Shown: positions 3,063 to 60,479 of the stretch, one piece after another
Numbering within the stretch: position 1 is the stretch's first letter
Layout of the letters: each line of letters opens with the position of its first letter
DNA from: Elephas maximus
Lineage: Eukaryota
DNA length: 64,000 nucleotides
Assembly: GCF_024166365.1 (NCBI RefSeq)
Contig: NC_064830.1
Coordinates: 89,268,968 to 89,332,967, forward strand
Direction of reading: 5' to 3'
Position numbers and translations under genes: made by a program
Notes under the pieces: generated by a model
Seen by the model: the letters and a program-made list of their open reading frames with translations, nothing else
Told to the model about the DNA's origin: nothing
Databases searched by the model: none

Positions 3063-6000
3063 TTATTAATAATTTTTATTGAGCTTTAAGTGAACGTTTA
3101 CAAATCAAGTCAGTCTTCTGTCACATATAAGCTTATATACACCTCACTCCACACTCCCACTTACTCTCCCCCTAATGAGTCAGTCCTTCCAGTCTCTCCT
3201 TTCGTGACCATTTTGCCAGTTTCTAACCCTCTCTACCCTCCCATCTCCCCTCCAGACAGGAGATGCCAACACAGTCTCAAGTGTCCACCTGATACAAGTA
3301 GCTCACTCTTTATCAGCATCTCTCTCCTACCCATTGTCCAGTCCCTTCCATGTCTGATGAGTTGTCTTCGGGAATGGTTCCCGTCCTGGGCCAACAAAAG
3401 GTTTGGGAACCATGACTGCCGGGATTCTTCTAGTCTCAGTCAGACCATTAAGTCTGGTCTTTTTATGAGAATTTGGGATCTGCATCCCACTGATCTCCTG
3501 CTCCCTCAGGGGTTCTCCGTTGTGCTCCCTGTTAGGGCAGTCATCGGTTGTGGCCGGGCACCATCTAGTTCTTCTGGTCTCAGGATGATGTAAGTCTCTG
3601 GTTCCTGTGGCCCTTTCTGTCTCTTGGGCTCATAGTTATCATGTGACCTTGGTGTTCTTCATTCTCCTTTGATCCAGGTGGGTTGAGACCAATTGCTGCA
3701 TCTTAGATGGCCGCTTGTTAGCATTTAAGACCCCAGACACCACATTTCAAAGTGGGATGCAGAATGTTTTCATAATAGAATTATTTTGCCAATTGACTTA
3801 GAAGTCCCCTTAAGCCATAGTCCCCAAACCCCCGCCCTTGTTCCGCTGACCTTTGAAGCATTCATTTTATCCCGGAAACTTCTTTGCTTTTGGTCCAGTC
3901 CAGTTGAGCTGACCTTCCGTGTATTATTGTCCTTCCCTTCACCTAAAGTAGTTCTTATCTACTAACTAATCAGTAAATAACCCTGTCCCACCCTCCCTCC
4001 CTCCCCCCCTCATAACCACAAAAGTATGTGTTCTTCTCAGTTTATACTATTTCTCAAGATCTTATAATAGTGGTCTTATACAATATTTGTCCTTTTGCCT
4101 CTGACTAATTTCGCTCAGCATAATGCCTTCCAGGTTCCTCCATGTTATGAAATGTTTCACAGATTCATCACTTTTCTTTATCGATGCTTAGTATTCCATT
4201 CTGTGAATATACCACAATTTATTTAACCATTCATCCGTTGATGGACACCTTGGTTGCTTCCAGCTTTTTGCTGTTGTAAACAGGGCTGCAATAAACATGG
4301 GTGTGCATATATCTGTTCGTGTGAAGGCTCTTATTTCTCTAGGGTATATTCTGAGGAGTGGGATTTCTGGGTTGTATGGTAGTTCTATTTCTAACTTTTT
4401 AAGGAAACGCCAGATAGATTTCCAAAGTGGTTGTACCATTTTACATTCCCACCGGCAGTGTATAAGAGTTCCAATCTCTCCGCAGCCTCTCCAACATTTA
4501 TTATTTTGTGTTTTTTTTTTTATTAATGCCAGCCTTGTTGGAGTGAGATGGAATCTCATCGTAGTTTTAATTTGCATTTCTCTAATGGCTAATGATCGAG
4601 AGCATTTTCTCATGTATCTGTCAGCTGCCTGAATATCTTCTTTAGTGAAGGGCGTGTTCATATCCTTCGCCCAATTTTTAATTGGGTTGTTTGTCTTTTT
4701 GTGGTTGAGTTTTAACAGAATCATATTGATTTTAGAGATCAGGCACTGGTCAGAGATGTCATAGCTGAAAATTTTTTCCCAGTCTGTAGGTGGTCTTTTT
4801 ATTCTTTTGGTGAAGTCTTTAGATGAACATAGGTGTTTGATTTTTAGGAGCTCCCAGTTATCTGGTTTCTTTTCATCATTTTTGGTAACGCTTTGTATTC
4901 TGTTTATGCCTTGTATTAGGGCTCCTAACGTTGTCCCTATTTTTTCTTCCATGATCTTTATCGTTTTAGTCTTTATGTTTAGGTCTTTGATCCACTTGGA
5001 GTTAGTTTTTGTGCATGGTGTGAGGTATGGGTCCTGTTTCGTTTTTTTGCCAATGGATATCCAGTTATGCCAGCACCATTTGTTAAAAAGACTGTCTTTT
5101 CCCCAATTAACTGACACCGGGCCTTTGTCAAATATCAGCTGCGCATAGGTGGATGGATTTATATCTGGGTTCTCAATTCTGTTCCATTGGTCTACGTGCC
5201 TGTTGTTGTACCAGTACCAGGCTGTTTTGACTACTGTGGCTGTGTAAGATGTTCTAAAATCAGGTAGAGTGAGGCCTCCCACTTTGTTCTTCTTTTTCAG
5301 TAATGCTTTACTTATCTGAGGCTTCTTTCGCTTCCATATGAAGTTTGTGATTTGTTTCTCCATCACATTAAAAAATGTCGTTGGAATTTGGATTGGAAGT
5401 GCATTGTATATAGAGATGGCTTTTGGTAGAACAGACATTTTTACTATGTTAAGTCTTCCTATCCATGAGCAAGGTATGTTTTTCCACTTACGTAGGTCCG
5501 TTTTAGTTTCTTGCAGTAGTACTTTGTAGTTTTCTTTGTATAGGTCTTTTACATCTTTGGTAAGATTTATTCCTAAGTATTTTATCTTCTTGGGGTCTAC
5601 TGTGAATGGTATTGGTTTGGTGATTTCCTCTTTGATGTCCTTTTTGTTGATGTAGAGGAATCCAAGTGATTTTTGTATGTTTATCTTGTAACCTGAAACT
5701 CTGCCGAACTGTTCTATTAGTTTCAGTAGTTTTCTGGAGGATTCCTTAGGGTTTTCCGTGTATAAAATCATGTTATCTGCAAATAGAGATAATTTTACTT
5801 CTTCCTTGCCAATCCAGATGCCCTTTATTTCTTTGTCTAGCCTAATTGCTCTGGCTAGGACCTCTAGCACAATGTTGAATAAGAGCTGTGATAAAGGGCA
5901 TCCTTGTCTGGTTCCCGTTCTCAAGGGAATTACTTTCAGGCTTTCTCCATTTAGGGTGATGTTGGCTGTTGGCTTGGTATAGATGCCCTTTATTATGTTG

Positions 6001-6300
6001 AGGAATTTTCCTTCAATTCCTATTTTGCTGAGAGTTTTTATTATGAATGGGTGTTGGACTTTGTCAAATGCCTTTTCTGCATCAATTGATAAGATCATGT
6101 GTTTTTTGTCTTTTGTTTTATTTATATGGTGGATTACATTAATGGTTTTTCTAATATTGAACCAACCTTGCATTCCTGGTATAAATCCCACTTGGTTTTT
6201 GGTTGTGGTGGATTATTTTTTTGATATGTTGTTGAATTCTATTGGCTAGAATTTTGTTGAGGATTGGAACAAAGCATTTTAAATTTCTTTTATTTGCTGT
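3063..6300 (-). mobile_element. L1 LINE, 5'-truncated: 3'UTR plus ORF2 RT and C-terminal region (667-aa ORF 4188..6191)
   Basis: ORF2 contains the reverse-transcriptase motifs FADNMILY and [16 protein letters not shown]. Its poly(A) abuts the preceding L1 copy. Confidence 0.9.
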
Positions 6301-25676: not shown

Positions 25677-25788
25677 CTGGGAAGGGAAGATGAAGTGGAG
25701 ATTAAAGGTCAGAAGATATCAGGGCTAATGTGGGAGGACAGGAAGCCCCTGACCCCAACTGGGGCTCCACAGAAGGAAGTCAACTTAC

Positions 25789-25912
25789 CAGGTCCTTCGA
25801 ATAGCCACTCGTCTCCTGCCACCACCTTGTCTCCGCTCTCATCCTCAAAATCCAGCAATGCCTTAAGATGCAGGGCAGTGTTGGGCAGAACCACCTGCAG
25901 CGGGGTGATGCC
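25789..25912 (-). CDS. MVP: MVP coding exon 3: [41 protein letters not shown](G). Acceptor CTAG|GGC, donor CCTG|GTAAGT.
   Basis: ORFs 25709..25894(-) and 25780..26016(-). Length 124 nt, phase 0 to 1. Confidence 0.9.
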
Positions 25913-26149
25913 CTAGTGGGAGAAAGAGGTTCATGAGCAGCTCTCTTGGGACTCCAGGGGTCAAACCTGATACCTTGGAGGTCAGAGTCCACGGCATCAA
26001 CCTTTACATGTCCCAAAATAAGACCCTGGGTGGAATGTGTAAGGTATGGGCGATCCCAAAGCCACCTGGTCTGAAGAACTAAGCGATGGCATCCACAGAG
26101 CTAAAGGGTGCCGTTGCTGATGAACCAAAGTTACCAGTGGTTAAGTATG

Positions 26150-26300
26150 GTTGCCATTGAGTTGATTCCGACTCAAAGCGATCCTACAGGACAGAGTAGA
26201 ACTGCCCCATAGGGTTTCCAAGGAGCGGCTGGTGGATTCAAACTGCTGACCTTTTGTTTAGCAGCCAAACTCCTAACCACAGCACCACCAGGCTCCTTAG
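26150..26300 (-). mobile_element. AfroSINE
   Basis: ttgccattgagttgattccgactcaaagcgatcctacaggacagagtagaactgccccatagggtttccaaggagcggctggtggattcaaactgctgacc. Confidence 0.85.
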
Positions 26301-26822
26301 AAATGGTTTAGAGCTAGTAATTGACTAGGAGGGAAACTGGGTAGAGAGCTTGGTGGGAGATGTAGGAGAAACATCATGAAGCTGCCTAAATAAATACTTC
26401 ACAGTCTAGTGTAAGAAGGCAGTCCTTCGGACCAGCCCAACAGCTATTCTCTTCCCCATTCCTCTCCCTGAAAACTTTGCCTCAGAACAAGCCACCCCCC
26501 ATGCCTGATGTTTGTCAGCAGGGTTAAAAAGATACAATTCCAGGCTAGGTGCCAAAGTGTCTTGCTACCTCCTGCTTCAGATGGTCAGGTGGGAAAATCT
26601 ATATGTGCTCCACGTAGTGAGTCACATAGGCTTTAAGATATAAAAATGGCTAGGGGAGAGACTTGGAATCCCTCACCTATTGCACACATGTAGCAGATTT
26701 CCATACCACCAACTACTCTACCTAGCCAGGGAGGACTCACTTAAGGAAGACCCTTTGAGTCCCTCACCTATGGTACAAAGTGAGATATGCATAAAAGAGT
26801 CATCATCTCTGCCCACACATCC

Positions 26823-27749
26823 TTTTTTTTTTTTTAAACAGGCTGAATTCACTTTATTTTTCTTGTATAAAAACCACTATGAGGTGGCCACAGCTGGAGC
26901 TTGGGTCCTCTGCACGGAGACTCTGGTGTGAGTCTTTACCAGGTGGTCAGTGAATTCCTGGTAGGGAAACTTAGTGAACACAGTCTCTTTCCAGAGGTCA
27001 GGGGTGAGAGAGCTGTAGGTCTTGGAGATGGCATCAAAGGTGGCCTTAGCGAAATTGCCCAGGGTGGCAATGCAGCCCTTGGCTGAGATGTAGCAGTCAT
27101 CGATACTAGCCATCATCAACAGTTTCTTGGGCACAGGGGCTGAGACCATGCCAGTGCCCCTGGGTGCAGGGATGAGGCGCACCAGCACAGAGCCACAGCA
27201 GCCAGTCACCTTGCAGGGAACAGTATGGGGCTTGTTGATCTTGTTCCCCCAGTAGCCTCGCTGCACAGGGACAATGGAGAGCTTGGCCAGAATGATGGCC
27301 CCACGGATGGCGGTGGCTACTTCCTTGGAACACTTCACACCTAGGCCAACATGGCCATTGTAGTTCCCAATGGCAACAAATGCCTTGAACCTGGTCCGTT
27401 GGCCAGCATGTGTCTGCTTATGCACAGGCATGATTTTCAAAACCTCATCCTTGAGGGCCATCCCCAAGAAGAAGTCAATGATCTCAGACTCCTTGATGGG
27501 CAGGGAGAAGAGACAGATCTCCTCCAGGGACTTGATCTTCATATCCTTGACCAGGCGGCCCAGCTTGGTGACGGGAAGCCACTCCTTCGGCTTTGCCTCC
27601 ACGAGCTCCGCGGCCCCGGCCCCAGCCCGCAGGCCACTGCCAAAGCCTCCGCGGAAACCGCCACGCGTTCCCATCCCTGGGCGCCCGGGGCCTCCAGGCC
27701 CTCCCTCTGCACCGGCGTCATCCACCATTTGGCATTTTCTCAGAGAAAA
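26823..27749 (-). pseudogene. RPS2: RPS2 processed retrocopy. The ORF is intact from ATG 27728..27726 to the stop at 26877. AATAAA at 26868..26863. Poly(A) 26823-26835. Flanked by the TSD GCCCACACATCCTTTTT at 26811-26826 and 27750-27766.
   Basis: ORF 26877..27758(-) aligns to human 40S ribosomal protein S2 over about 280 aa. It is intronless and has a pyrimidine-rich (TOP-like) leader. The Arg-Gly repeat is replaced by [18 protein letters not shown], and there are several substitutions at residues recalled as conserved in human RPS2. Confidence 0.88.
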
Positions 27750-29149
27750 AGCCCACACATCCTTTTTGAGTCAAGGGGGGACCGACTCAAAAATCGATCT
27801 GCATTTATTCTGGTGTGCTGTCTGCTTCTTTTTTAAGTAATAAAAGCTACCTTCCTGTGCTAACACTCTGGGACTGTCTTGTGTGTTCAGGCTCTGATCA
27901 GATGGATGGGATATTCATGGAGGGATCGCTATCAATGGTGTCCTCTTCGTAATGGCCTGGATATTTAGGACCCTGGGACCACCAGAGAGGCAACATGTGA
28001 GTACATCATACCAGTGTACATTGTGACTATCTAGGAAGTATAATGATGCAGGAAGGTATTAACTGACATAACAGGTAAATTTTAAGCATTGGCTTTACCT
28101 CAAGGTTGTGTAGTGGGCAAAAGATGGCCATTGTACTCCAGTCATCACCTCTCTTTCTGCTAGGTAGAAGAGGATCTGGCAAAAAGTACTCAAGCTTTTT
28201 AAAAGTTTAATTTCTAGAAATATTTCTACAAACAGGACTTCATTTGATCTTTGACAATATTCTGAGGGAGGCAAGGAAGCAAGGAAATGGAGGCTCATAG
28301 AGGTCAAGGGACATGACCAAGGTCACACAGCTAGCAGGGAAGAGAATCAAGACTTGAACTGAAGTTTTCAGTGAAGGCTGTCTGCCCCTCTTTACCTTGA
28401 TGCTCTTTACTCTGGCTACATTGGCTCTGAGGTAGAGAAGGAGATGAAGTAACTCTACCCATTGACCATGAACTGAGCCAGGAGAGAGGCAGAGCTACAG
28501 GCTCACTGCTCAGGCAAGCCTTCTCTGTACACCTTCTATGTGCATGGCACTCTGTCAGTTATGGTAGGGGCAAGAGATACCCCCTGTCATCCTGGAGTTT
28601 AAGTTCCATCAGGGTGATAAGACATAGACCACCTTCTCCAAGAAGAGTACAGGCAGTGTCAAGGGAGAGAAGCTCTGCAGAAGTTAGGATGAAGGAAAAG
28701 GTAGGGAAGGTCCTCAGAAGGTGGTGTTTGAACTGGGGCTCAAACACACAGCTGGCTTTTGAGACACATGTGTGGAGGAAGGGGAAGAGAGGTGAGTATT
28801 TTGGGAAAAGTGTAGTCCAACATGTTTTTCACCTCCTGCATCTACTCTATCATCACTGCCTGTCTGTTCCATTGCAAATATCCCAGATCTACTTTGGTCT
28901 ATACCTGCCATCACTGTGGTCTGAGTCATCAACATGTTTTCCTGGTTGATGGACTTATCTTCCTAAGTGGTGTCCTTGCTGCCACCTTAGTCTCCTTCTA
29001 GCCCATTCCCCACACTGTTTAAAGCTTCTAGCTTGGGTGACTGGGTGCACAATAGGTGACCAAGTAAGACTGAGAAAATGGGCAAAGGGACCTGAGGGTA
29101 AGGGAAAGTGGTAGGTTTTGATGTCCAGTATGAGGTAGCGGTAGAACTG

Positions 29150-30000
29150 CTTCATAGGGTTTCAAAGGCTGTAAATCTTTATGGAAGCAGACTGTCACAT
29201 CTTTCTCCCATGGAACAGCTAGTAAGTTTGAACCACCAACCTTTTGGTTAGCAGCCAAGCACTTAACCGTTGCGCCACCAGAGCCTGGTCCTATGCTATC
29301 CTCATAATCGTTGATATGTTTGAACTCACTGTTCCAGCCACCATGTCAGTCCACCTTATTGAGGGCCTCCCTCTTTTTTCCTGACCCTTTACTTTACCAA
29401 GCATGATATCCTTCTCTAGTAACTGGTTCCTCCTGATAACGTGTCCAAAGTAAGCAAAATGAAGTCTCATCATCCTCACTTCTAAGGAGCATTCTGGGTG
29501 TACTTCTTCTGAGGCAGATTTGTTCGTTCTTCTGGAAATCCATGGCAAATTCAGTATTCTTCATCAACACCATAATTTGAATGTGTCGATTCTTCTTCAG
29601 TCTTCCTTTATTATCCAGCTTTCACGTGTACATGAGGCAACTGAAAATAGCATGGCTTAGGTCAGGGGCACCTTAGTCATCAAAGTGACATCTTTGATTT
29701 TTAAAACTTTAAAGAGGTCTTTTGCAGTACATATGCCCAATGCATTACGTCATTTGATTTCTTGACTGCTGCTTCCATGGACATTGATTGTTGATCCAAG
29801 AAGAATGAAATCTTTGACAACTTCAATTTCTTCACCACTTATCATGATGCTGTTTATTGGACCAATTATAAGGATTTTAATTTCTTTAAGTTCAGGTGGA
29901 ATCCATACTGAAGTCTATATAGTCTTTTACCCTCATCGGTAAGTGCTTAAAGTCCTCCTCACTTTCAGCAAGCAAATTTGTGTCACACAATTAAACACAA
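29150..30000 (-). mobile_element. AfroSINE (29150-29290) abutting an RTE 3' portion (29291-~30000)
   Basis: ORF 29291..29548(-) ...HFAYFGHVIRRNQLLEKDIMLGKVKGQEKRGRPSIRWTDMVAGT is the RTE C-terminus. Confidence 0.8.
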
Positions 30001-32141
30001 TATGATTTATATGTACCAACGTGCAGAAATTAATTCCAAATATACTGGCAAACAAAGGTACAGAGCATGATAGCCTTTTGTAAATAGATTATAATGAACT
30101 GGTCAAGGAAAAGGCATAGTAGAGGAGAAGTTACAGACAAAAAGGAAACAAAAACGGTAGATGGGGAAAAGGTCTCAAGAGACAAAGTGGGATAGGCCAG
30201 ATTACTGAGGCCACCTGGATACAGGGGAACCTTCTCCTCCAACAGGTAGAAGGGAGATGAGGGTAGGTAAGGGGATGGGACACAGACCTAGGTATTGCCA
30301 GATGACCTCAATTTTTAAATAAATGGGTAACCAAGTTCTTCAAGAGTAGAAGAAAATAGGAAGAAAGTAGAAAATGATAAGTATTTAGAAGCATACAGAA
30401 AAAATGAAAAGGTAGCTAGAAAGGAAGAGAACTGGTGGACATGGCTTAGGTTGGAAGGAACCCATTAATCCATTAGCTATTTATAATACTGTCATCGTGG
30501 TGGCATCCTTCCACAGGCTATGCTTTTTCTAACAGGAACATTTTTCCTGAGTATGAGAATGGAACGGGTAGGTGGGATGTAACACTGATCCAGGACCAGA
30601 GTATCAAGGGTTTAGTAGTAGAGATAGTTTGCGAGAAGTGTGAAACTAATAAAGTCTTGTCAGAATAGCAAAAAAAGACCAGGAAGAGAATCTAGAGATG
30701 GAAGAGAAGACAACAGAGAAGTGACAAGGAAGGGAGGGAGTTGATGGGAAGGAAGAGGATGGAGTTTAGATCTCAGAGGTGGGGCAGGTAGGAGAGTAAC
30801 CAAGTCCAGAGTGGACATGGTACTGAGCAAGGGGTGAAGCAGAACAGAACTTGTGAGGGTCCTCGGAGTTTGGGTCAATAAGGCCAAGCTATTGGCAGGG
30901 CCATCTGCAAGGATATTAGTAAGGGTTCTAGGAGGACGTAAGAATAGGTGGGGGTGGAAGGGAGGTCTGAGCTAGGGGCCCACTGAGCCAGTGATGGTGG
31001 GAAAGGAAATGATGGTGCTGGCAGAGCTGAATGCCTTGAAGGAGGAGTGTTGACTCAAGGGTAAAAAAAGAATGGGGTCTTAGTGGCATTATGCTCCAAG
31101 GAGGGAGAGGCCTTGACCTCCTGGTCTGGAGCTCCCAGTGTTTGAGAGAATGAGCTGCCACCATGGGCAGGGGCCACTGGGGAAACCCAAATCCTTGAGG
31201 AAGCAGAAGCTGAAACAAGGCAGGGATAAGGAAAGCTTTTACTCTCAGTCCTGGGGAGCTTTTAAATACTGATGCCTGGAATAGCCCTCATCCCACCCAG
31301 AGGTTGACTTAACTGGTCTAGGGTAAGGCCAGGACATGAATTTATGTTTTAACTTTTAATTTGGACAGTTTCAAATTTACAGAAAAGTTGCAAAATAGTA
31401 CAGAAAATTCCCATACATGCTTCCACCAGATTCTCTAAGGGGTAACATTTTAATCACATTGTTTACACCGCCTCTCCACACACACACTATCCCCCTCAAG
31501 CTGTCTGCATCTAAGTGGCCACGAATATTTTAGAAAGCTCCCCTGGTCGTGCTATTATGCACCCAGGATCAGTAACCACCACGAGTTAGTAGAGGAACCC
31601 AGAGTGAAAAAGTATAAAATGGTAAGAAGATAAGCGGAAGAGAACAGTTCAGGACATGGGGGTGGGATGTCCCCTTGCTCCTGGCCCAGGGCCTGAGGGC
31701 AGCATGGACAAGGCCTGGGTGGGATACAGGCCTCCAATGCGCTCCCTTGGAACCGGTCATCTGAGCCTGGACCTTCACTTGTCCATTATTGCCTTGTCAC
31801 TGCCCAACAGTATCTGGCACTGTGAATGAAATTCACAAGTCATTTAGTGCCACAACAGGTTGGGAGCTTCAAGCAGCCTCTGAGCCTAAATAGACTGGGT
31901 GATCAGATGGGCCAACAGTTCACAAAGGAGGGTCCATCTGTTGTGGATGTATATGGAGGAGGGGGTGATTGGGGGAGGTTGGTGAAGAGGGGATGAGTCA
32001 ATTCTGCCCCTGCTGAGAGTCAGCAACTATCCCCTCCCAGCCCTTACCACTGCCCCAGGTATTTTTCCCCTTAGTAGTGTGAAGCCCTAGGACAGGGTGG
32101 CAGGACAGAGAGAGTAGGCATACGGGAGGCAAGCCAGGTAC

Positions 32142-32337
32142 CTTTTCCAGTATCTCCCCCGGATATAAGGGGAAGGGGTCCTGGGCCAGCCGGATCTCCA
32201 GGTCAGCATGGCGAAGCCGTACTTGTCCTGTGACGTCAAACAGCACTGAACCCTCGGCATCCCGGGACACAGGATTGGCCACTGTGCAGTAGTGGCGTGG
32301 GGGGACAGTCACCATGGGCACAGGGGCAAACAGTACC
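32142..32337 (-). CDS. MVP: MVP coding exon 2: (R)[65 protein letters not shown]. Acceptor CAG|G, donor AAG|GTACCT.
   Basis: ORF 31998..32321(-). Matches human MVP residues ~42-107. Phase is consistent with the flanking exons. Confidence 0.9.
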
Positions 32338-32571: not shown

Positions 32572-32708
32572 CTCTCATTGTCCTGCCGGATGTAGGTCTT
32601 TGGCCCGACCTCCACACGGGACACGTTGCTGTTCTGGTCCAGGACATGGATGTAGTGGTATGGGGGGATGCGGATGATGGACTCTTCTGTTGCCATGGTG
32701 ATCAAGGG
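32572..32708 (-). CDS. MVP: MVP coding exon 1 (gene exon 2). ATG at 32696..32694, CDS part 32572-32696, encoding [41 protein letters not shown](R). Donor GAGAG|GTTAGT. The 5' exon edge (acceptor near 32709) is uncertain.
   Basis: ORF 32517..32726(-) contains [42 protein letters not shown], near-identical to the human MVP N-terminus (recalled). Donor GT follows codon 52 of that ORF. Confidence 0.88.
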
Positions 32709-37439: not shown

Positions 37440-38928
37440 CTCACCCTGTTGTTGTTGTTAGGTGCCACTGAGTCAGTTCCAACTCTATGTACAACAGAAT
37501 GAAACACTGCCTGATCCTACTCCATCTTCATAACCATTGCTATGTTTCATCCCATCGCTGCAGTCACTGTCTCAATTCATCTTGTTGAGGGTCTTCCTTT
37601 CTTTCACTGACCCTCTACTTTACCAAGCATGATGTCCTTCTCCAGATACTGGTCCCTCCTGATAACCTGTCTAAAATATGTGAGACCAAGTCTTATCATC
37701 TTACCTGCTAAGGAGCATTCTGGCTGCACTTTTTCTAAGATAGATTTGTTCATTCTTCTGGCAGTCCATGGTATATTTAGTATTCTTCACCGACACCATA
37801 ATTCAAATGCATCAATTCTCCTTAAAAACTAATTCTTCTGGCAGTCCATGGTATATTTAGTATTCTTCACCAACACCATAATTCAAATGCATCAATTAGG
37901 TCTTCCTTATTCATTGTCCAGTTTTACATGCATATGAGGCAACTGAAAATGCCATGGCTTGGCTCAGGCTCACTTTAGTCCTCAAAGTGACATCTTTGGT
38001 TTTCAACACTTTAAAGAGGTCTTTTGCAGCAGATTTGTCCAATGCAATACACCCTTTGATTTCTTGACTGCTGTTTCCAGAGGCATTGATTGTGGATCCA
38101 AGTAAAATGAAATCCCTGACAACTTCAGTCTTTTTTCCGATTATCATCGTGTGGCTTATTGGTCCAGTTGTCAAGATTTTTGTTTCCTTTGTGTTGAGGT
38201 GTAATCCATACTGAAGGCTGTAGTCTTGGATCTTCATCAGTAAGTGCTTCAAGTCCTCTTGGCTTTCGGCAAGCAAGGTCGTATCATCCACACATCGCAG
38301 GTTGTTAATGAGTCTTCCTCCAATCCTGATGGCACATTCTTCTTCATGTAGTCCAACTTCTCTGATTATTTGCTCAGCACGCAAAGTGAATAAGTATGGT
38401 GAAAGGATACAACCCTGACACACATCTTTTCTGATTTTAAACCACTCAGTATCTCCTTGTTCTGTTTGAATGACGGCCTTTTGGTCTATGTACAGGTTCC
38501 TCATGAGCACAATTAAGTGTTCTGGACTTCCCATTCTTTACAATGTTATCCATAATTTGTTATGATCCACACAGTCGAATGCCTTTGCATAGCCAGTAAA
38601 ACACAGGTAAACATCTTTCTGGTATTCTCTACTTTCAGCTAAGATCCTTGTTCCATATCCTCTTCTGACTCTACTTGAAATCTGACAGTTCCTGGTCAAT
38701 ATACTGCTGCAACTGCTTTTGAGTTAACTTCAGCAAAATTTTACTTGCGTGTGATATTAATGGTAGTGTTCAGTAATTTCTACATTCTGTTGGATCACCT
38801 TTGGAATGGGCACAAATATGGATCTCTTCCAGTCAGTTGGCCAGGTAGCCCTTTTCCAAATCTCTTGGCACGGAAGAGTAAGCACCTCTACTGCTACATC
38901 CATTTGTTGAAACTTCTCAATTGGTATT
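37440..38928 (-). mobile_element. RTE element (RT domain ORF 37911..38534), 3' part. The element is split by the ERV insertion and continues at 45665-47050.
   Basis: RT motifs FKIRKDVCQGCILSPYLF and LRCVDDTTLLAESQEDLKHLLMKIQDYSLQYGLHLNTKETKILTTG. The sequence at 38880-38928 continues uninterrupted at 45665 onward. Confidence 0.85.
37745..37885 (-). repeat. ~65 bp direct tandem duplication inside the RTE copy
   Basis: ttcttctggcagtccatggtatatttagtattcttcacc(g/a)acaccataattcaaatgcatcaatt occurs twice in succession. Confidence 0.85.
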
Positions 38929-40790: not shown

Positions 40791-43367
40791 GCCACGCTCG
40801 AACTTGGTATAGTGGAGGCATGGCTCCACAAATGAATGAGTGCTCTGCCAACTTTGCCCAGATCTTCTCACTTTCAGAAATAATTAGGACTGTGGATTAA
40901 ACCTGGATCCCTCTGTCACAGGAAGGAAAGTGCCAAAGGCAAGGATTAGGGCAGTGTTCATGAGAGGTGACTGGGATGTGAAAACGTGAAGTCCGTGGGA
41001 GAACGGACCCAGTAGTGAATGGGATGTGGAATTGATAACGGAGGAGGAGTCTGACAGTGCAGAGTGGCCCCCCAGCACAGCTGCTCAGATGAAAGCTACC
41101 CAGGAACCCAGTGACCCCAGAAGTTTGGTTACTATGTCTGTGGGATATGAGGGAGACAGTATCTCTTTAAACAGAGCCAAGACTAAGAAACCTGCAAGGC
41201 TACAGTCCAAGGGCAAGGGCTCTGTGAAAGTGACAGGAAGGCAGACAGAAAGCAGAGGCAGGTGCACTTAGGGGCTGCCAGAATGGCAGTGCATGAGATA
41301 TGGAAGCAATTGAATGCAGTATTGGTTAGTCTTTGGAAGGAAATGAAGCAGGAGCAACAGTACTGCCCTCTGGGTCCTATGCCCTGCTCAAGGAAGTGTC
41401 CTTTGCAGTTGGGTGAACCCCGCCCATCCCTAGGGACTCTGGTTGATACTGGGACAGCGTGCACCCTTATCTTTGGAAAACCTGAGCAGTTTCAAAGACC
41501 ACCCCCTCCCTGCAATTGATGGGTACTGGGGAAGTCCATCTACTTACGCCATGAACTTCTGACCCTGCAAGTAGGATGCACTCCCCCTAGACTGCATCAA
41601 GTTTATACTTGCCCAATACTGGAATACATTCCAGGAATGGATGTCCTCATAAGACTGACTTTGACCACGTCTCTGGGAGAATTCCAACTGTAAGTGAGGG
41701 TGGTAAAAGGGGGCATGCGGCATGAAAACCAGGGGCCCCGCCCCCACCACGAAGGGTGGTAGACATCAAGCAATACAAACTTCCCAGAGGACATAAGGAA
41801 ATTACTAAAACTACGTTGGAATTGAAAAGAGTTGCTATCTTCCAGGAACCCCACAGTGCTTTTAATAGCCCTGTGTGGCTTGTGAAAAAACCAGATGAGG
41901 CCTGGCATATGACCGTGGACTACAGGGAACTGAACAAAGTGACCCCTCCTATACATGCTGCAGTCCTGAGCATAACTCCTCTGTTAGAAACCCTTAGTAG
42001 AGACCTGGGCACGTATCACGCTGTGTTAGATCTGGCCAATGCTTTCTTTCGCATCCCTCTAGCCCTATCTGCCCCAAACCAGCTTGCCTTTACCTGGTTG
42101 GGGGCAGGGGAACGCGGGTGGCAGCAATGGACATTTCAAGTGTTTGCCATGGTATGGTGGCTAGAGATCTGCCTCTTTTCGCCTTCTCTGCTGCCGCCCA
42201 TTGGTTTCATTACCTTGATAACATCATGCTGATGAGGCTATTTCTCTGTTACAGGCGTGTCCAGACGCCCTAATCATTCACCTACAGGGGAGAGGGTGGG
42301 CCATGAATCCCCACAAGGTGCAGGGGCCAACATCATCAGTAAAATTCCTAGGGATTGTCTGGTCACTAAGACCCGTGTGCTGCCTGAAGCCATACACGGA
42401 TGGCTCTAGCCGAGGTATGCCACCAGCCTGCACGGAGGTTGCTGTGCAGGTTTCCACTGATACTACTTGGTTTGAAACCAGCTCAGGGAAAAACAGTCAA
42501 TAGGCTGAATTAACGGCCACGTGGAAGTTCATCACCCATGAACCCTGGCCTTTAACTCTGTGCACAGACCGTTGGGTATGGGCCTGTGGGCTAACTATGT
42601 GGATAAGCCAGTGGCATAAAGAACAGTGGACAGTAACAGGTAAAGTCCTGTGGGGAAAAGCCTTGTGGCAGGACATCTGGAATCACCTTCAAACCCCAGA
42701 TGCTGACCTAACTGTTTTTCACGTAACAGCACATTCACCCCTATAGCAACAGACCCTATAGCACGAGTTAGAATGGTGCATCCTAAGAGGGAAGCTGCCC
42801 ACTAGATTCACCAGCAAAGCAGACGCCACAGTGCTTGTGTTGGTTAGAAAACAGCCAAAGAGACAGGCACAGCAGTAAAGTATAGTGATCTGGTGGGGCT
42901 GTGCAAAATTGCCCTACGGACTCACAACAATACCCAAGGCATCTGCCACACAATTCTGGGCAGACACATAAAGGAACACAGCCAATGACAGACTGGCAGG
43001 AAAATTTTATAGTGCCTCTACCCCCAGTGAAGGGGCAAAGTACGCTCTTGTTTGTGTGGGCATTGTCACCTGCTTGATGGGCATTCCCATGTAAACGAGC
43101 AAACCAGTCTGCTACAATAAAGGAGTTACAAAAACTGAGTATTGTATACGGGATACTCCAAAGGGTTAACAGTGATCGGGGATACACTTTACAGGTCACC
43201 ATGTGTGCAAATAGGCAGCTGAGAACAAGACACAATGGCATTACTACCTACCCCACAACCCCCAGGTACAGACATGGTAGAAAAGAAGAACAGTGTCCTA
43301 AAACAACAAATATGAACACTTAAACAGGCAAGGCTTCCGTGGCGTGGTGGACCAAGGTGCTGCCTGA

Positions 43368-58800: not shown

Positions 58801-60060
58801 CAAGGAAAATTTTGCTGAAGACCATTCAAAAGTGGCTGCAGCAGTACATCAGCAGAAAACTGCCAGAAATTCAAGCAGGATTCAGAAGAGGACCTGGAAC
58901 GAGGGATATTATTACTGATGTCAGATGGATCCTGGCTAAAAGGATACCAGAAAGATGTTTACCTGTGTTTTGTTGATTATGCAAAGGCATTTGACTATGT
59001 GGATCATAACAAATTATGGATAGCATTATGAAGAATGGGAATTCCAGAACACTTAATTGTGTTCATGAGGAACCTGTACCTAGATCGAGAGGCAGTCGTT
59101 GGAACAGAACAAGGGTATACTGCATGGTTTAAAGTCAGGAAAAGTGTGCATCAGGGTTGTATCTTTTCACCATACCTATTCAGTCTGTTGCTGAGCAAGT
59201 AATCTGAGAAACTGGACTATATGAAGAAGAACGGGGCATCAGGATAGGAGGGAGACTCATTAACAACCTGCATTATGCAGATGACACAACCTTGCTTGCA
59301 GAAAGTGAAGAGGACTTGAAGCACTTACTGATGAAGATCAAAGACCACAGCCTTCAGTATGGATTACACCTCAACATAAAGAAAACAAAAATCCTTACTA
59401 CTGAACCAATAAGCAACATCATCATAAACAGAGAAAAGATTGAAGTTGTCAAGGATTTCATTTTACTTGGATCTACAATCAACACCCATGGAAGCACCAG
59501 TCAAAAATCAAAAGACGCTTTGCATTGGGCAAATCTGCTGCAAAAGACCTCTTTAAAGTGTTGAAAAGCAAAGATGTCACCTTGAAGACTAAGGTGCGCC
59601 TGACCCAAGCCATGGTATTTTCAATCGCCTCCTATGCATGTGAAAGCTGGACGATGAATAAGGAAGACCTAAGAAGAATTGATGCCTTTGAATTGTGGTG
59701 TTGGTGAAGAACATTTGGACTGCCAAAAGAACAAACAAATCTGTCTTGGAGGAAGTACAACCAGAATGCTCTTTAGAAGCAAGGATGATGAGCCTATGTC
59801 TCACATACTTTGGACATGTTGTCAGGAGGGATCAGTCCCTGGAAAAGGACATTATGTCTGGTAAGGTAGAGGGTCAGCGAAAAAGAGGAAGACCCTCAAC
59901 AAGATGGATTGACACAGTTGCTGCAACAATGGGCTCAAGCATAACAAGGAGAATGAGAATGGTGCAGGACCAGGCAGTTTTGGTTCTGTTGTGTATAGGG
60001 TCACTATTAGTCAGAATCCACTCAACACCACCTAAGAACACAAACAACAACCCCCGCAAG
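55900..60060 (+). mobile_element. Near full-length RTE/BovB LINE (5' region, APE domain 56690-57420, RT 58550-59700, C-terminus/tail to ~60060). The ORF has in-frame stops. Interrupted by an L1 3'UTR fragment (57640-58150, minus strand).
   Basis: ORFs 56696..56902(+), 57156..57421(+), 58550..58976(+), 59292..59707(+) and 59695..60180(+) contain the APE and RT motifs and the tail ...LVRIHSTPPKNTNNNP. Confidence 0.85.
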
Positions 60061-60479
60061 GGTGCCATGCACCTTATTTACATTACTAGCAAGCTATCCA
60101 TTTCCCTTGGTGGCCCACAAGCACCTCATTTGCATTGTCTTACCAAATCATTTGGTGGAAGTTACAAAGACTATGGCTAGAAGGGCTATATTAAGTAATT
60201 CAATGCACCGCAGGCCACCTCCTGCCTCTTCTAGCCATTGGCCGTTTCACACTTGAAGGATTAACTACCACCTCCCAATCATTTTCCTAGTCCAAAATGG
60301 TCACTAACACTTAGTCCTGCATTTGGAGGGCAAAGAGTCCTAAGGGTGAGGCTACTTAGGCACCAGCCATTCAGGTCTGCTGCATATATCCATCTGGTCA
60401 GGTTCTCCAAAAGTCATCTCAGCTTCACCCTCTCTGGCCTCTGATAATAGTTTTTTTTTTTTAAAGAAAAACCTTATTA

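Follow-up and report, generated by a model that had tools for sequence, protein, structure and literature searches.

An RPS2 retrocopy with an open reading frame in an MVP intron of elephants: probably an ordinary processed pseudogene

Processed pseudogenes of ribosomal protein (RP) genes form the largest class of processed pseudogenes in mammals, and RPS2 has many such copies. How, then, should one read an RPS2 (uS5) copy that lies within an intron of another gene, in the orientation of that gene, and still carries an uninterrupted frame of 283 codons? Here we consider this question for a stretch of 64,000 nucleotides from Elephas maximus (NCBI RefSeq assembly GCF_024166365.1, contig NC_064830.1, positions 89,268,968 to 89,332,967; the whole stretch is called the window below), in which such a retrocopy sits between two coding exons of MVP. 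The copy is best explained as an ordinary processed RPS2 pseudogene, non-functional and open in frame by chance, a reading to which we give a probability of about 0.93. The anatomy of retroposition, the empty site in related species, the presence of the copy in two elephant genera, its pair of frameshifts and its relaxed constraint are all demonstrated by the comparisons described below.

Anatomy and age of the insertion

A model that saw only the letters of the DNA (the sequence-only reading) had described an intronless RPS2 retrocopy with a terminal oligopyrimidine (TOP)-like leader and a 283-codon open reading frame (ORF). Checks of positions, Pfam and PDB matches and a colinear alignment with cDNAs all bear this description out. 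The parts of the copy, in window coordinates, are as follows.

26811-27767, minus strand: whole retrocopy, from one target-site duplication (TSD) to the other; full-length intronless RPS2 (uS5)
27751-27767, minus strand: 5' TSD, AAAAAGGATGTGTGGGC, an exact 17-nt match to 26811-26827
27729-27750, minus strand: 5' untranslated region (UTR), a pyrimidine-rich TOP-type leader, (C)TTTTTCTCTGAGAAAATGCCAA, directly after the 5' repeat
26877-27728, minus strand: 283-codon ORF plus stop, a degenerate uS5/RPS2 with Pfam and PDB matches
27588-27627, minus strand: 40-nt stretch out of the parental frame, from alignments with retrocopies and functional cDNAs
26836-26876, minus strand: 3' UTR of 41 nt, with AATAAA at 26858-26853
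26823-26835, minus strand: poly(A) remnant of 13 A, the final 5 of them within the 3' TSD
26811-26827, minus strand: 3' TSD, at which the flanks of the sirenian sequence rejoin with a 16-nt overlap

The script-checked start codon of the ORF is the ATG at 27728-27726, and the stop codon is TAG at 26879-26877; the sequence-only reading had the end of the frame right at 26877 and the codon wrong, as TAA. The poly(A) signal that it reported is present, ten nucleotides away from the 26868-26863 that it gave, and its 13-nt poly(A) was found at 26835-26823, where the A run begins 17 nt past AATAAA. On re-inspection the TSD is present and perfect, with 17 matches in 17 positions, and it carries the element to 27767 rather than to 27766. 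In the program-made list of ORFs the frame reaches further upstream, to a GTG, which is irrelevant as a start in a eukaryote.

The parentage of the copy is clear from its product, which matches PF00333 (Ribosomal_S5, 3.2e-29) and PF03719 (Ribosomal_S5_C, 4.1e-21) and has mammalian 40S protein S2/uS5 as its top matches among solved structures (E about 1e-160). The parental RPS2 gene is multi-exonic. The coding sequence and both UTRs of the copy nevertheless align end to end with two functional vertebrate RPS2 cDNAs (L006 and L007) and with other retrocopies, interrupted by two deletions only, of 25 nt and 5 nt, and by no introns. At the 3' end, the copy and other retrocopies run colinear as far as ...GCCTGTTT, where the A run follows. 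At the 5' end, a second elephant retrocopy (L004, CTTTTTCTCC...) shares this starting nucleotide, immediately behind a TSD of its own, and an Elephantulus copy (L008) begins nearby, GCTTTTCTGAG..., with a shorter T run. Among the structures, the best match is the rabbit 'RPS2' of 4kzx chain C (278 aa). This chain starts MVDDAGA, has a shortened Arg-Gly (RG) tract and, at several conserved positions, residues other than the canonical ones; it looks like a gene model derived from a retrocopy and taken up in model building.

The perfect 17-nt direct repeat reads GCCCACACATCCTTTTT on the plus strand, and the terminal C of its 5' copy could equally be assigned to the cap-site C of the mRNA. The chance expectation for a repeat with 17 of 17 matches that exactly brackets an mRNA-shaped insert is about 4^-17. 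The insertion junction on the sense strand is CTC/AAAAAGG (the slash marks the junction), where the sirenian empty site has CTC/GAAAAGG. The endonuclease of LINE-1 (L1) prefers sites like TT/AAAA, and the target used here is one mismatch off that consensus, which makes it compatible with L1 and not diagnostic of it.

The strongest proof of retroposition is the precise empty site in manatee and dugong. We compared the MVP loci of Loxodonta africana (L001, assembly GCA_030014295.1), the Florida manatee (L002) and the dugong (L003), which were obtained through the full-length Loxodonta, manatee and dugong isoforms of MVP; the Elephas protein (P0136) and manatee isoform 2 (P0201) matched no contig. 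In both sirenians the flanks abut with a 16-nt overlap around a single copy of the target, GAAAAGGCTATCTGGGC, with no insert, and the site reads ...CCCCCCTTGACTC GAAAAGGCTATCTGGGC AGAGATAG... Relative to the window, the sirenian intron lacks 924 nt plus one TSD. Loxodonta has an orthologous copy, which aligns over 2157 bp without gaps at 99.07% identity and shares with the window copy its TSD, its deletions and its open frame of 283 codons; the two ORFs differ at 5 positions, 3 replacement and 2 silent. A comparison with other afrotherians had been proposed from the sequence alone, and its outcome is thus an insert in Loxodonta and an empty site in the two sirenians. The suggestion of L1-type retroposition also fits, with a copy that spans the whole mRNA between its TOP start and its native poly(A) site, a 17-bp TSD and the sirenian empty site. 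A duplication at the DNA level was considered as well, and was rejected.

Could the insert be an artefact of assembly or a contaminating cDNA? The cDNA-like structure is all that speaks for this explanation, whose probability is vanishingly small. The same site, TSD and private deletions are found in the independent chromosome assembly of Loxodonta africana, the insert differs between the two elephants by 0.6%, similar to the 0.64% across the whole host intron (99.3% identical, insert included), and the copy is about 3% diverged from its parent. The comparison of the Loxodonta and sirenian loci thus rules an artefact out, and it was rejected.

When did the copy arrive? Because the site is empty in Sirenia and filled in Loxodonta, the insertion must have occurred after the proboscidean-sirenian split and before the split of Elephas and Loxodonta. 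The copy diverges from the inferred parental sequence by 2.9-3.5%, while the divergence between elephant and sirenian introns is about 11% (Jukes-Cantor distance about 0.12), which places the event about half-way along the elephant lineage. The absolute age derived in this way is roughly 30 million years, give or take tens of percent. A calibration on the slow recent rate of elephants gives an older figure, which is less credible.

These observations suggest a simple history for the copy. A mature RPS2 mRNA would have been reverse-transcribed and inserted by the LINE-1 machinery, through target-primed reverse transcription at a TC/AAAAA site, and would have landed, with no promoter carried along, between coding exons 2 and 3 of MVP in the genome of a stem proboscidean. 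Later substitutions would have accumulated at an approximately neutral ratio of replacement to silent changes. Two deletions destroyed the Arg-Gly repeat and, summing to 30 nt, restored the frame downstream, and the copy would since have been carried passively in the MVP pre-mRNA. We infer both that L1 was the source of the enzymes and that the copy is not expressed.

Compensated frameshifts and relaxed constraint

The N-terminal Arg-Gly repeat of eukaryotic RPS2 is a methylated tract, and it is a hallmark that the retrocopy lacks. The sequence-only reading had found this region rewritten, and so it is, though by a compensated double frameshift rather than by scattered substitutions. A 25-nt deletion lies within the repeat, with its junction between about 27628 and 27627, and a 5-nt deletion follows 40 nt downstream, between about 27588 and 27587; the exact placement within the repeat is ambiguous by a few nucleotides. 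In the out-of-frame stretch between them, 13 residues substitute for the RG repeat and for ARGGKAED. Since the deletions total 30 nt, the parental frame is regained downstream, at KEW. A single in-frame deletion of 30 nt was considered as an alternative and rejected, because 28 nt of the intervening stretch, GGCCGCGGAGCTCGTGGAGGCAAAGCCG, are identical to the parent and yet read one base out of phase. The pair of deletions therefore compensate each other: no stop codon arises, and both S5 domains stay in frame while the RG domain is destroyed. A second indel has a roughly one-in-three chance of restoring a frame in this way.

The alignment behind these statements comprises the second elephant retrocopy (L004), the elephant-shrew retrocopy (L008), a bat retrocopy (L005) and the functional vertebrate cDNAs L006 and L007. 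Both deletions are common to the window and Loxodonta copies, and neither is found in six comparison sequences, including the two functional cDNAs.

Is the frame that remains under selection? The elephant parent gene was not recovered, as none of nine guessed sequences, nor the human sequence taken from a PDB alignment, gave an exact look-up match. The parental state at each alignment column was therefore reconstructed from the second elephant retrocopy together with four outgroups, over 269 codons with the RG segment excluded. A majority rule over six sequences was used, as the two decayed retrocopies alone mis-set parental residues through parallel CpG decay (for example at LGCLV); the fish-like L006 and sauropsid-like L007 served only for polarising changes. 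On the branch that leads to the retrocopy there are 16 replacement and 6-11 silent changes, the range coming from four or five ties at third positions. Conditioned on the numbers of CpG transitions, other transitions and transversions, the expected replacements are 15.4-19.0, which gives an omega of 0.57-1.16 and a one-sided P of 0.10-0.70. An omega of 0.1 or less is rejected (P < 5e-6), as is one of 0.3 or less (P < 0.05). By the Nei-Gojobori method the branch has a Ka/Ks of 0.46-0.75, against 0.03-0.04 for functional sauropsid and fish RPS2 versus the same parent.

The positions of the replacements tell a similar story. In the core of uS5, only 12 of 236 positions distinguish human from fish. 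Nonetheless, 13 of the replacements in the retrocopy fall at residues on which human, sauropsid and fish uS5 all agree (Y82C, Q113H, R117H, D132N, G175N, R187C, I204M, G218S, T224I, R227K, T230I, Y250S and S264F), as the sequence-only reading had surmised when it spoke of altered conserved residues. Since the two elephants separated, the Loxodonta copy has gained 3 further replacements (R34W, P101L and H103R) and 1 silent change, and the window copy 1 silent change. Given the substitutions observed, the probability that no stop codon would have arisen is 0.5-0.6. The earlier description of a decaying pseudogene that has so far escaped a stop codon thus agrees well with 16 replacement versus 6-11 silent changes and an omega of about 0.5-1.2.

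Several points weigh against an ordinary dead copy. The parent is inferred and not observed, so that the silent count is uncertain (6-11), and under the least favourable resolution omega falls to about 0.5, a value that would be compatible with weak or early transient constraint. Elephas and Loxodonta alike have an open ORF. One change, R166Q, is common to the other elephant retrocopy, and may be either parental or a parallel CpG change. A survey of RP retrocopies reads pairwise Ka/Ks values below 1 as a sign of such weak or early transient constraint (PMC4219774).

The host gene and the rival readings

MVP runs through the window on the minus strand, and the parts that surround the retrocopy are as follows.

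32572-32696, minus strand: MVP coding exon 1 (32696-32572)
32142-32337, minus strand: MVP coding exon 2 (32337-32142)
25913-32141, minus strand: host intron of 6229 nt, with GT at 32141-32140 and AG at 25914-25913
25787-25912, minus strand: MVP coding exon 3 (25912-25787)

A human MVP sequence, which served solely as a probe for locating exons in the window, picked out a colinear minus-strand series from 32696 down to 12490. In a protein search, the product stitched together from these exons has elephant MVP as its best match, at 1721 bits versus about 1557 for the next. Spliced via GT-AG, the three exons listed translate exactly to residues 1-149 of elephant MVP (P0136), and the retrocopy must therefore lie in the intron that separates coding exon 2 from coding exon 3, on the same strand as MVP. 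The sense orientation claimed from the sequence alone thus stands. The label 'intron 2' holds for coding introns and perhaps not for the transcript: a putative splice acceptor lies 15 nt ahead of the MVP ATG, which suggests an upstream non-coding exon. Human MVP has such an exon. If elephants have it too, the host intron becomes intron 3 by transcript numbering.

The host intron also holds a second feature peculiar to elephants. The predicted isoform X2 of Loxodonta MVP (XP_064151885.1, 795 aa) opens with MAIFCPLHNLE, which is encoded by a predicted mini-exon at 28099-28131 on the minus strand (donor GT at 28098-28097), 331 bp upstream of the retrocopy (L001 7564), and which is joined in that model to coding exon 3. 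The ATG and the GT donor of the mini-exon are specific to elephants: at these positions manatee and dugong read AAG and AT, and they have an in-frame TGA besides.

Does the insert affect MVP? Its sense AATAAA, or cryptic splice sites within it, could bring about premature polyadenylation or exonisation and thereby truncated or chimeric transcripts. The insert does lie in the MVP orientation with an intact AATAAA and its native cleavage region, and sense intronic retrocopies can donate exons and 3' ends to their hosts, as an RPL32 retrocopy does in RPS29 (PMC2584115). We nonetheless regard such an effect as quite unlikely. Within the window, the MVP coding span already has another 9 AATAAA and 10 ATTAAA hexamers on its sense strand, 3 and 4 of them, respectively, within the host intron of the retrocopy. 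No ribosomal S5 domain is on record in three elephant MVP protein models (P0259, P0257 and P0151), which carry vault-family Pfam domains only, and the Loxodonta models X1 and X2 (P0259 and P0257) splice straight into coding exon 3. Since model X2 starts upstream of the retrocopy, transcription must read through the insert to reach that exon. Finally, the MVP proteins of the two elephants differ at a single residue after tens of millions of years with the insert (residue 264, Cys in the window and Elephas maximus, Tyr in Loxodonta). These four indirect points speak for tolerance of the insert by MVP. Residue 264, together with the 99.3% identity to the Loxodonta intron, also agrees with an elephantid origin of the window, most likely Asian elephant.

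The other rival grants the copy a function of its own, as an RG-less uS5 paralogue or some other protein whose frame has been kept open by selection in elephantids. The ORF has indeed stayed intact in both the Elephas-like and the Loxodonta sequence while the copy diverged from its parent by about 3%, the two deletions do restore the frame, omega is about 0.5 under one resolution of the ambiguous sites, and some RP retroduplicates have been reported as constrained (PMC4219774). Set against this are the 16 replacements, of which 13 strike residues that human and fish have in common, the loss of the Arg-Gly tract, the 3 further replacements versus 1 silent change on the Loxodonta branch, and an omega that cannot be told from 1 once transition bias is handled. 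Moreover, the insert brought no promoter along, about half of such copies are expected to be open by chance, and the exact product is absent from a collection of 15 billion protein sequences, which includes genome annotations and run assemblies. We therefore hold a functional retrogene to be very improbable, and would say the same of the wider proposal that the copy is kept open by some role in elephantids, whether as a translated RG-less uS5 variant or as an intronic element that shapes MVP isoforms together with the mini-exon at 28131-28099; this too is highly unlikely. An ordinary pseudogene, open by chance, remains our preferred reading.

Related retrocopies and significance

Considered as a class, processed RP pseudogenes made by L1 resemble the MVP-intron copy closely. 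They share the intronless full-length structure, the TOP start, the poly(A), the 17-bp TSD at an A-rich target and the lack of a promoter, as well as near-neutral drift with frameshifting indels, and many of them keep open frames. Nothing in the MVP-intron copy is different in kind; what is specific to it are the compensating deletions of 25 nt and 5 nt, its sense position in an MVP intron and an age that the empty site of the sirenians brackets. Among the hits of the homologue search were dozens of gene models named '40S ribosomal protein S2-like', from many different mammals, and hundreds of intact RP retroduplicates have been counted per mammalian genome (PMC4219774).

The nearest relative for comparison is the second elephant retrocopy, at 1501-2382 of the Loxodonta locus L004 (CM057421.1), which is intronless and flanked by its own TSD (AAAAATTAAT/CATTGCCAC). 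It derives from the same parent with the same transcription start and poly(A) site, and it too has an open ORF. It differs from the MVP-intron copy in its locus, in its divergence (5.5-6.1% versus about 3%) and in having the parental length of 293 aa. It also differs in annotation: the second copy is listed as the protein-coding 'small ribosomal subunit protein uS5-like' in the annotations of Loxodonta and Elephas alike (XP_064136784.1 and XP_049732983.1), whereas the product of the MVP-intron copy is not in the protein collection. Its changes relative to the reconstructed parent, 30 replacement and 14-19 silent, have a neutral-looking ratio, and the second copy is probably another open-frame pseudogene.

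Other known systems share parts of this picture. The Type I sense retrocopies of Baertsch et al. (2008, PMC2584115) likewise lie in sense orientation inside an intron of a multi-exon host, but the MVP protein models retrieved here show no ribosomal S5 domain. Functional RP retrogenes such as RPL10L, RPL36AL and Rps23rg1 (PMC4219774) likewise arose by retroposition of an RP mRNA and have an intact ORF; unlike the MVP-intron copy, with its relaxed constraint and lost RG domain, they are expressed and constrained.

Some of the sequences met in the search deserve a word of their own. The vampire bat 'small ribosomal subunit protein uS5' (P0038; L005 501-1382, Desmodus rotundus CM040299.1) comes from an intronless locus of 882 nt with a poly(A) tail, and its product is altered at conserved sites (for example LGCLV and QTCAGQ); as a candidate for the parental RPS2 gene it was rejected, being an intronless retrocopy. 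The 900-nt contig of L006 (BMHS01000083.1, GCA_014641415.1, Massilia psychrophila) is labelled '30S ribosomal protein S5'. By its sequence it is a full vertebrate (fish-like) RPS2 cDNA, a contamination in the bacterial assembly.

Elements of the LINE ORF2 type supply the machinery for retroposition, and remnants of retroelements occur elsewhere in the window. Beyond the 3' end of MVP, a 667-aa ORF at 4188-6191 on the minus strand matches RVT_1 (7.8e-30) and is a LINE-type ORF2 fragment. Upstream of MVP lie three more ORFs, at 37911-38534 (minus strand), 41756-42232 (plus strand) and 59695-60180 (plus strand), which look like degraded retroelements; two of them match RVT_1, at 1.6e-10 and 2.5e-4 (the latter below the Pfam threshold), and the third has no Pfam match.

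What does the MVP-intron copy mean for the study of elephants? The class of retrocopies to which it belongs is well known, of which it is a newly described member, and beyond annotation its importance is small. The open frame should not be annotated as a gene, and the same caution applies to the sister copy now listed as 'uS5-like'. The copy also provides an example of how two frameshifts can leave a long and seemingly intact ORF. As for the history of the group, the insertion makes a clean presence/absence marker, as the Elephas-like and Loxodonta sequences carry it and Sirenia do not, and it could be used with ancient or extinct proboscidean genomes in dating events on the proboscidean stem.

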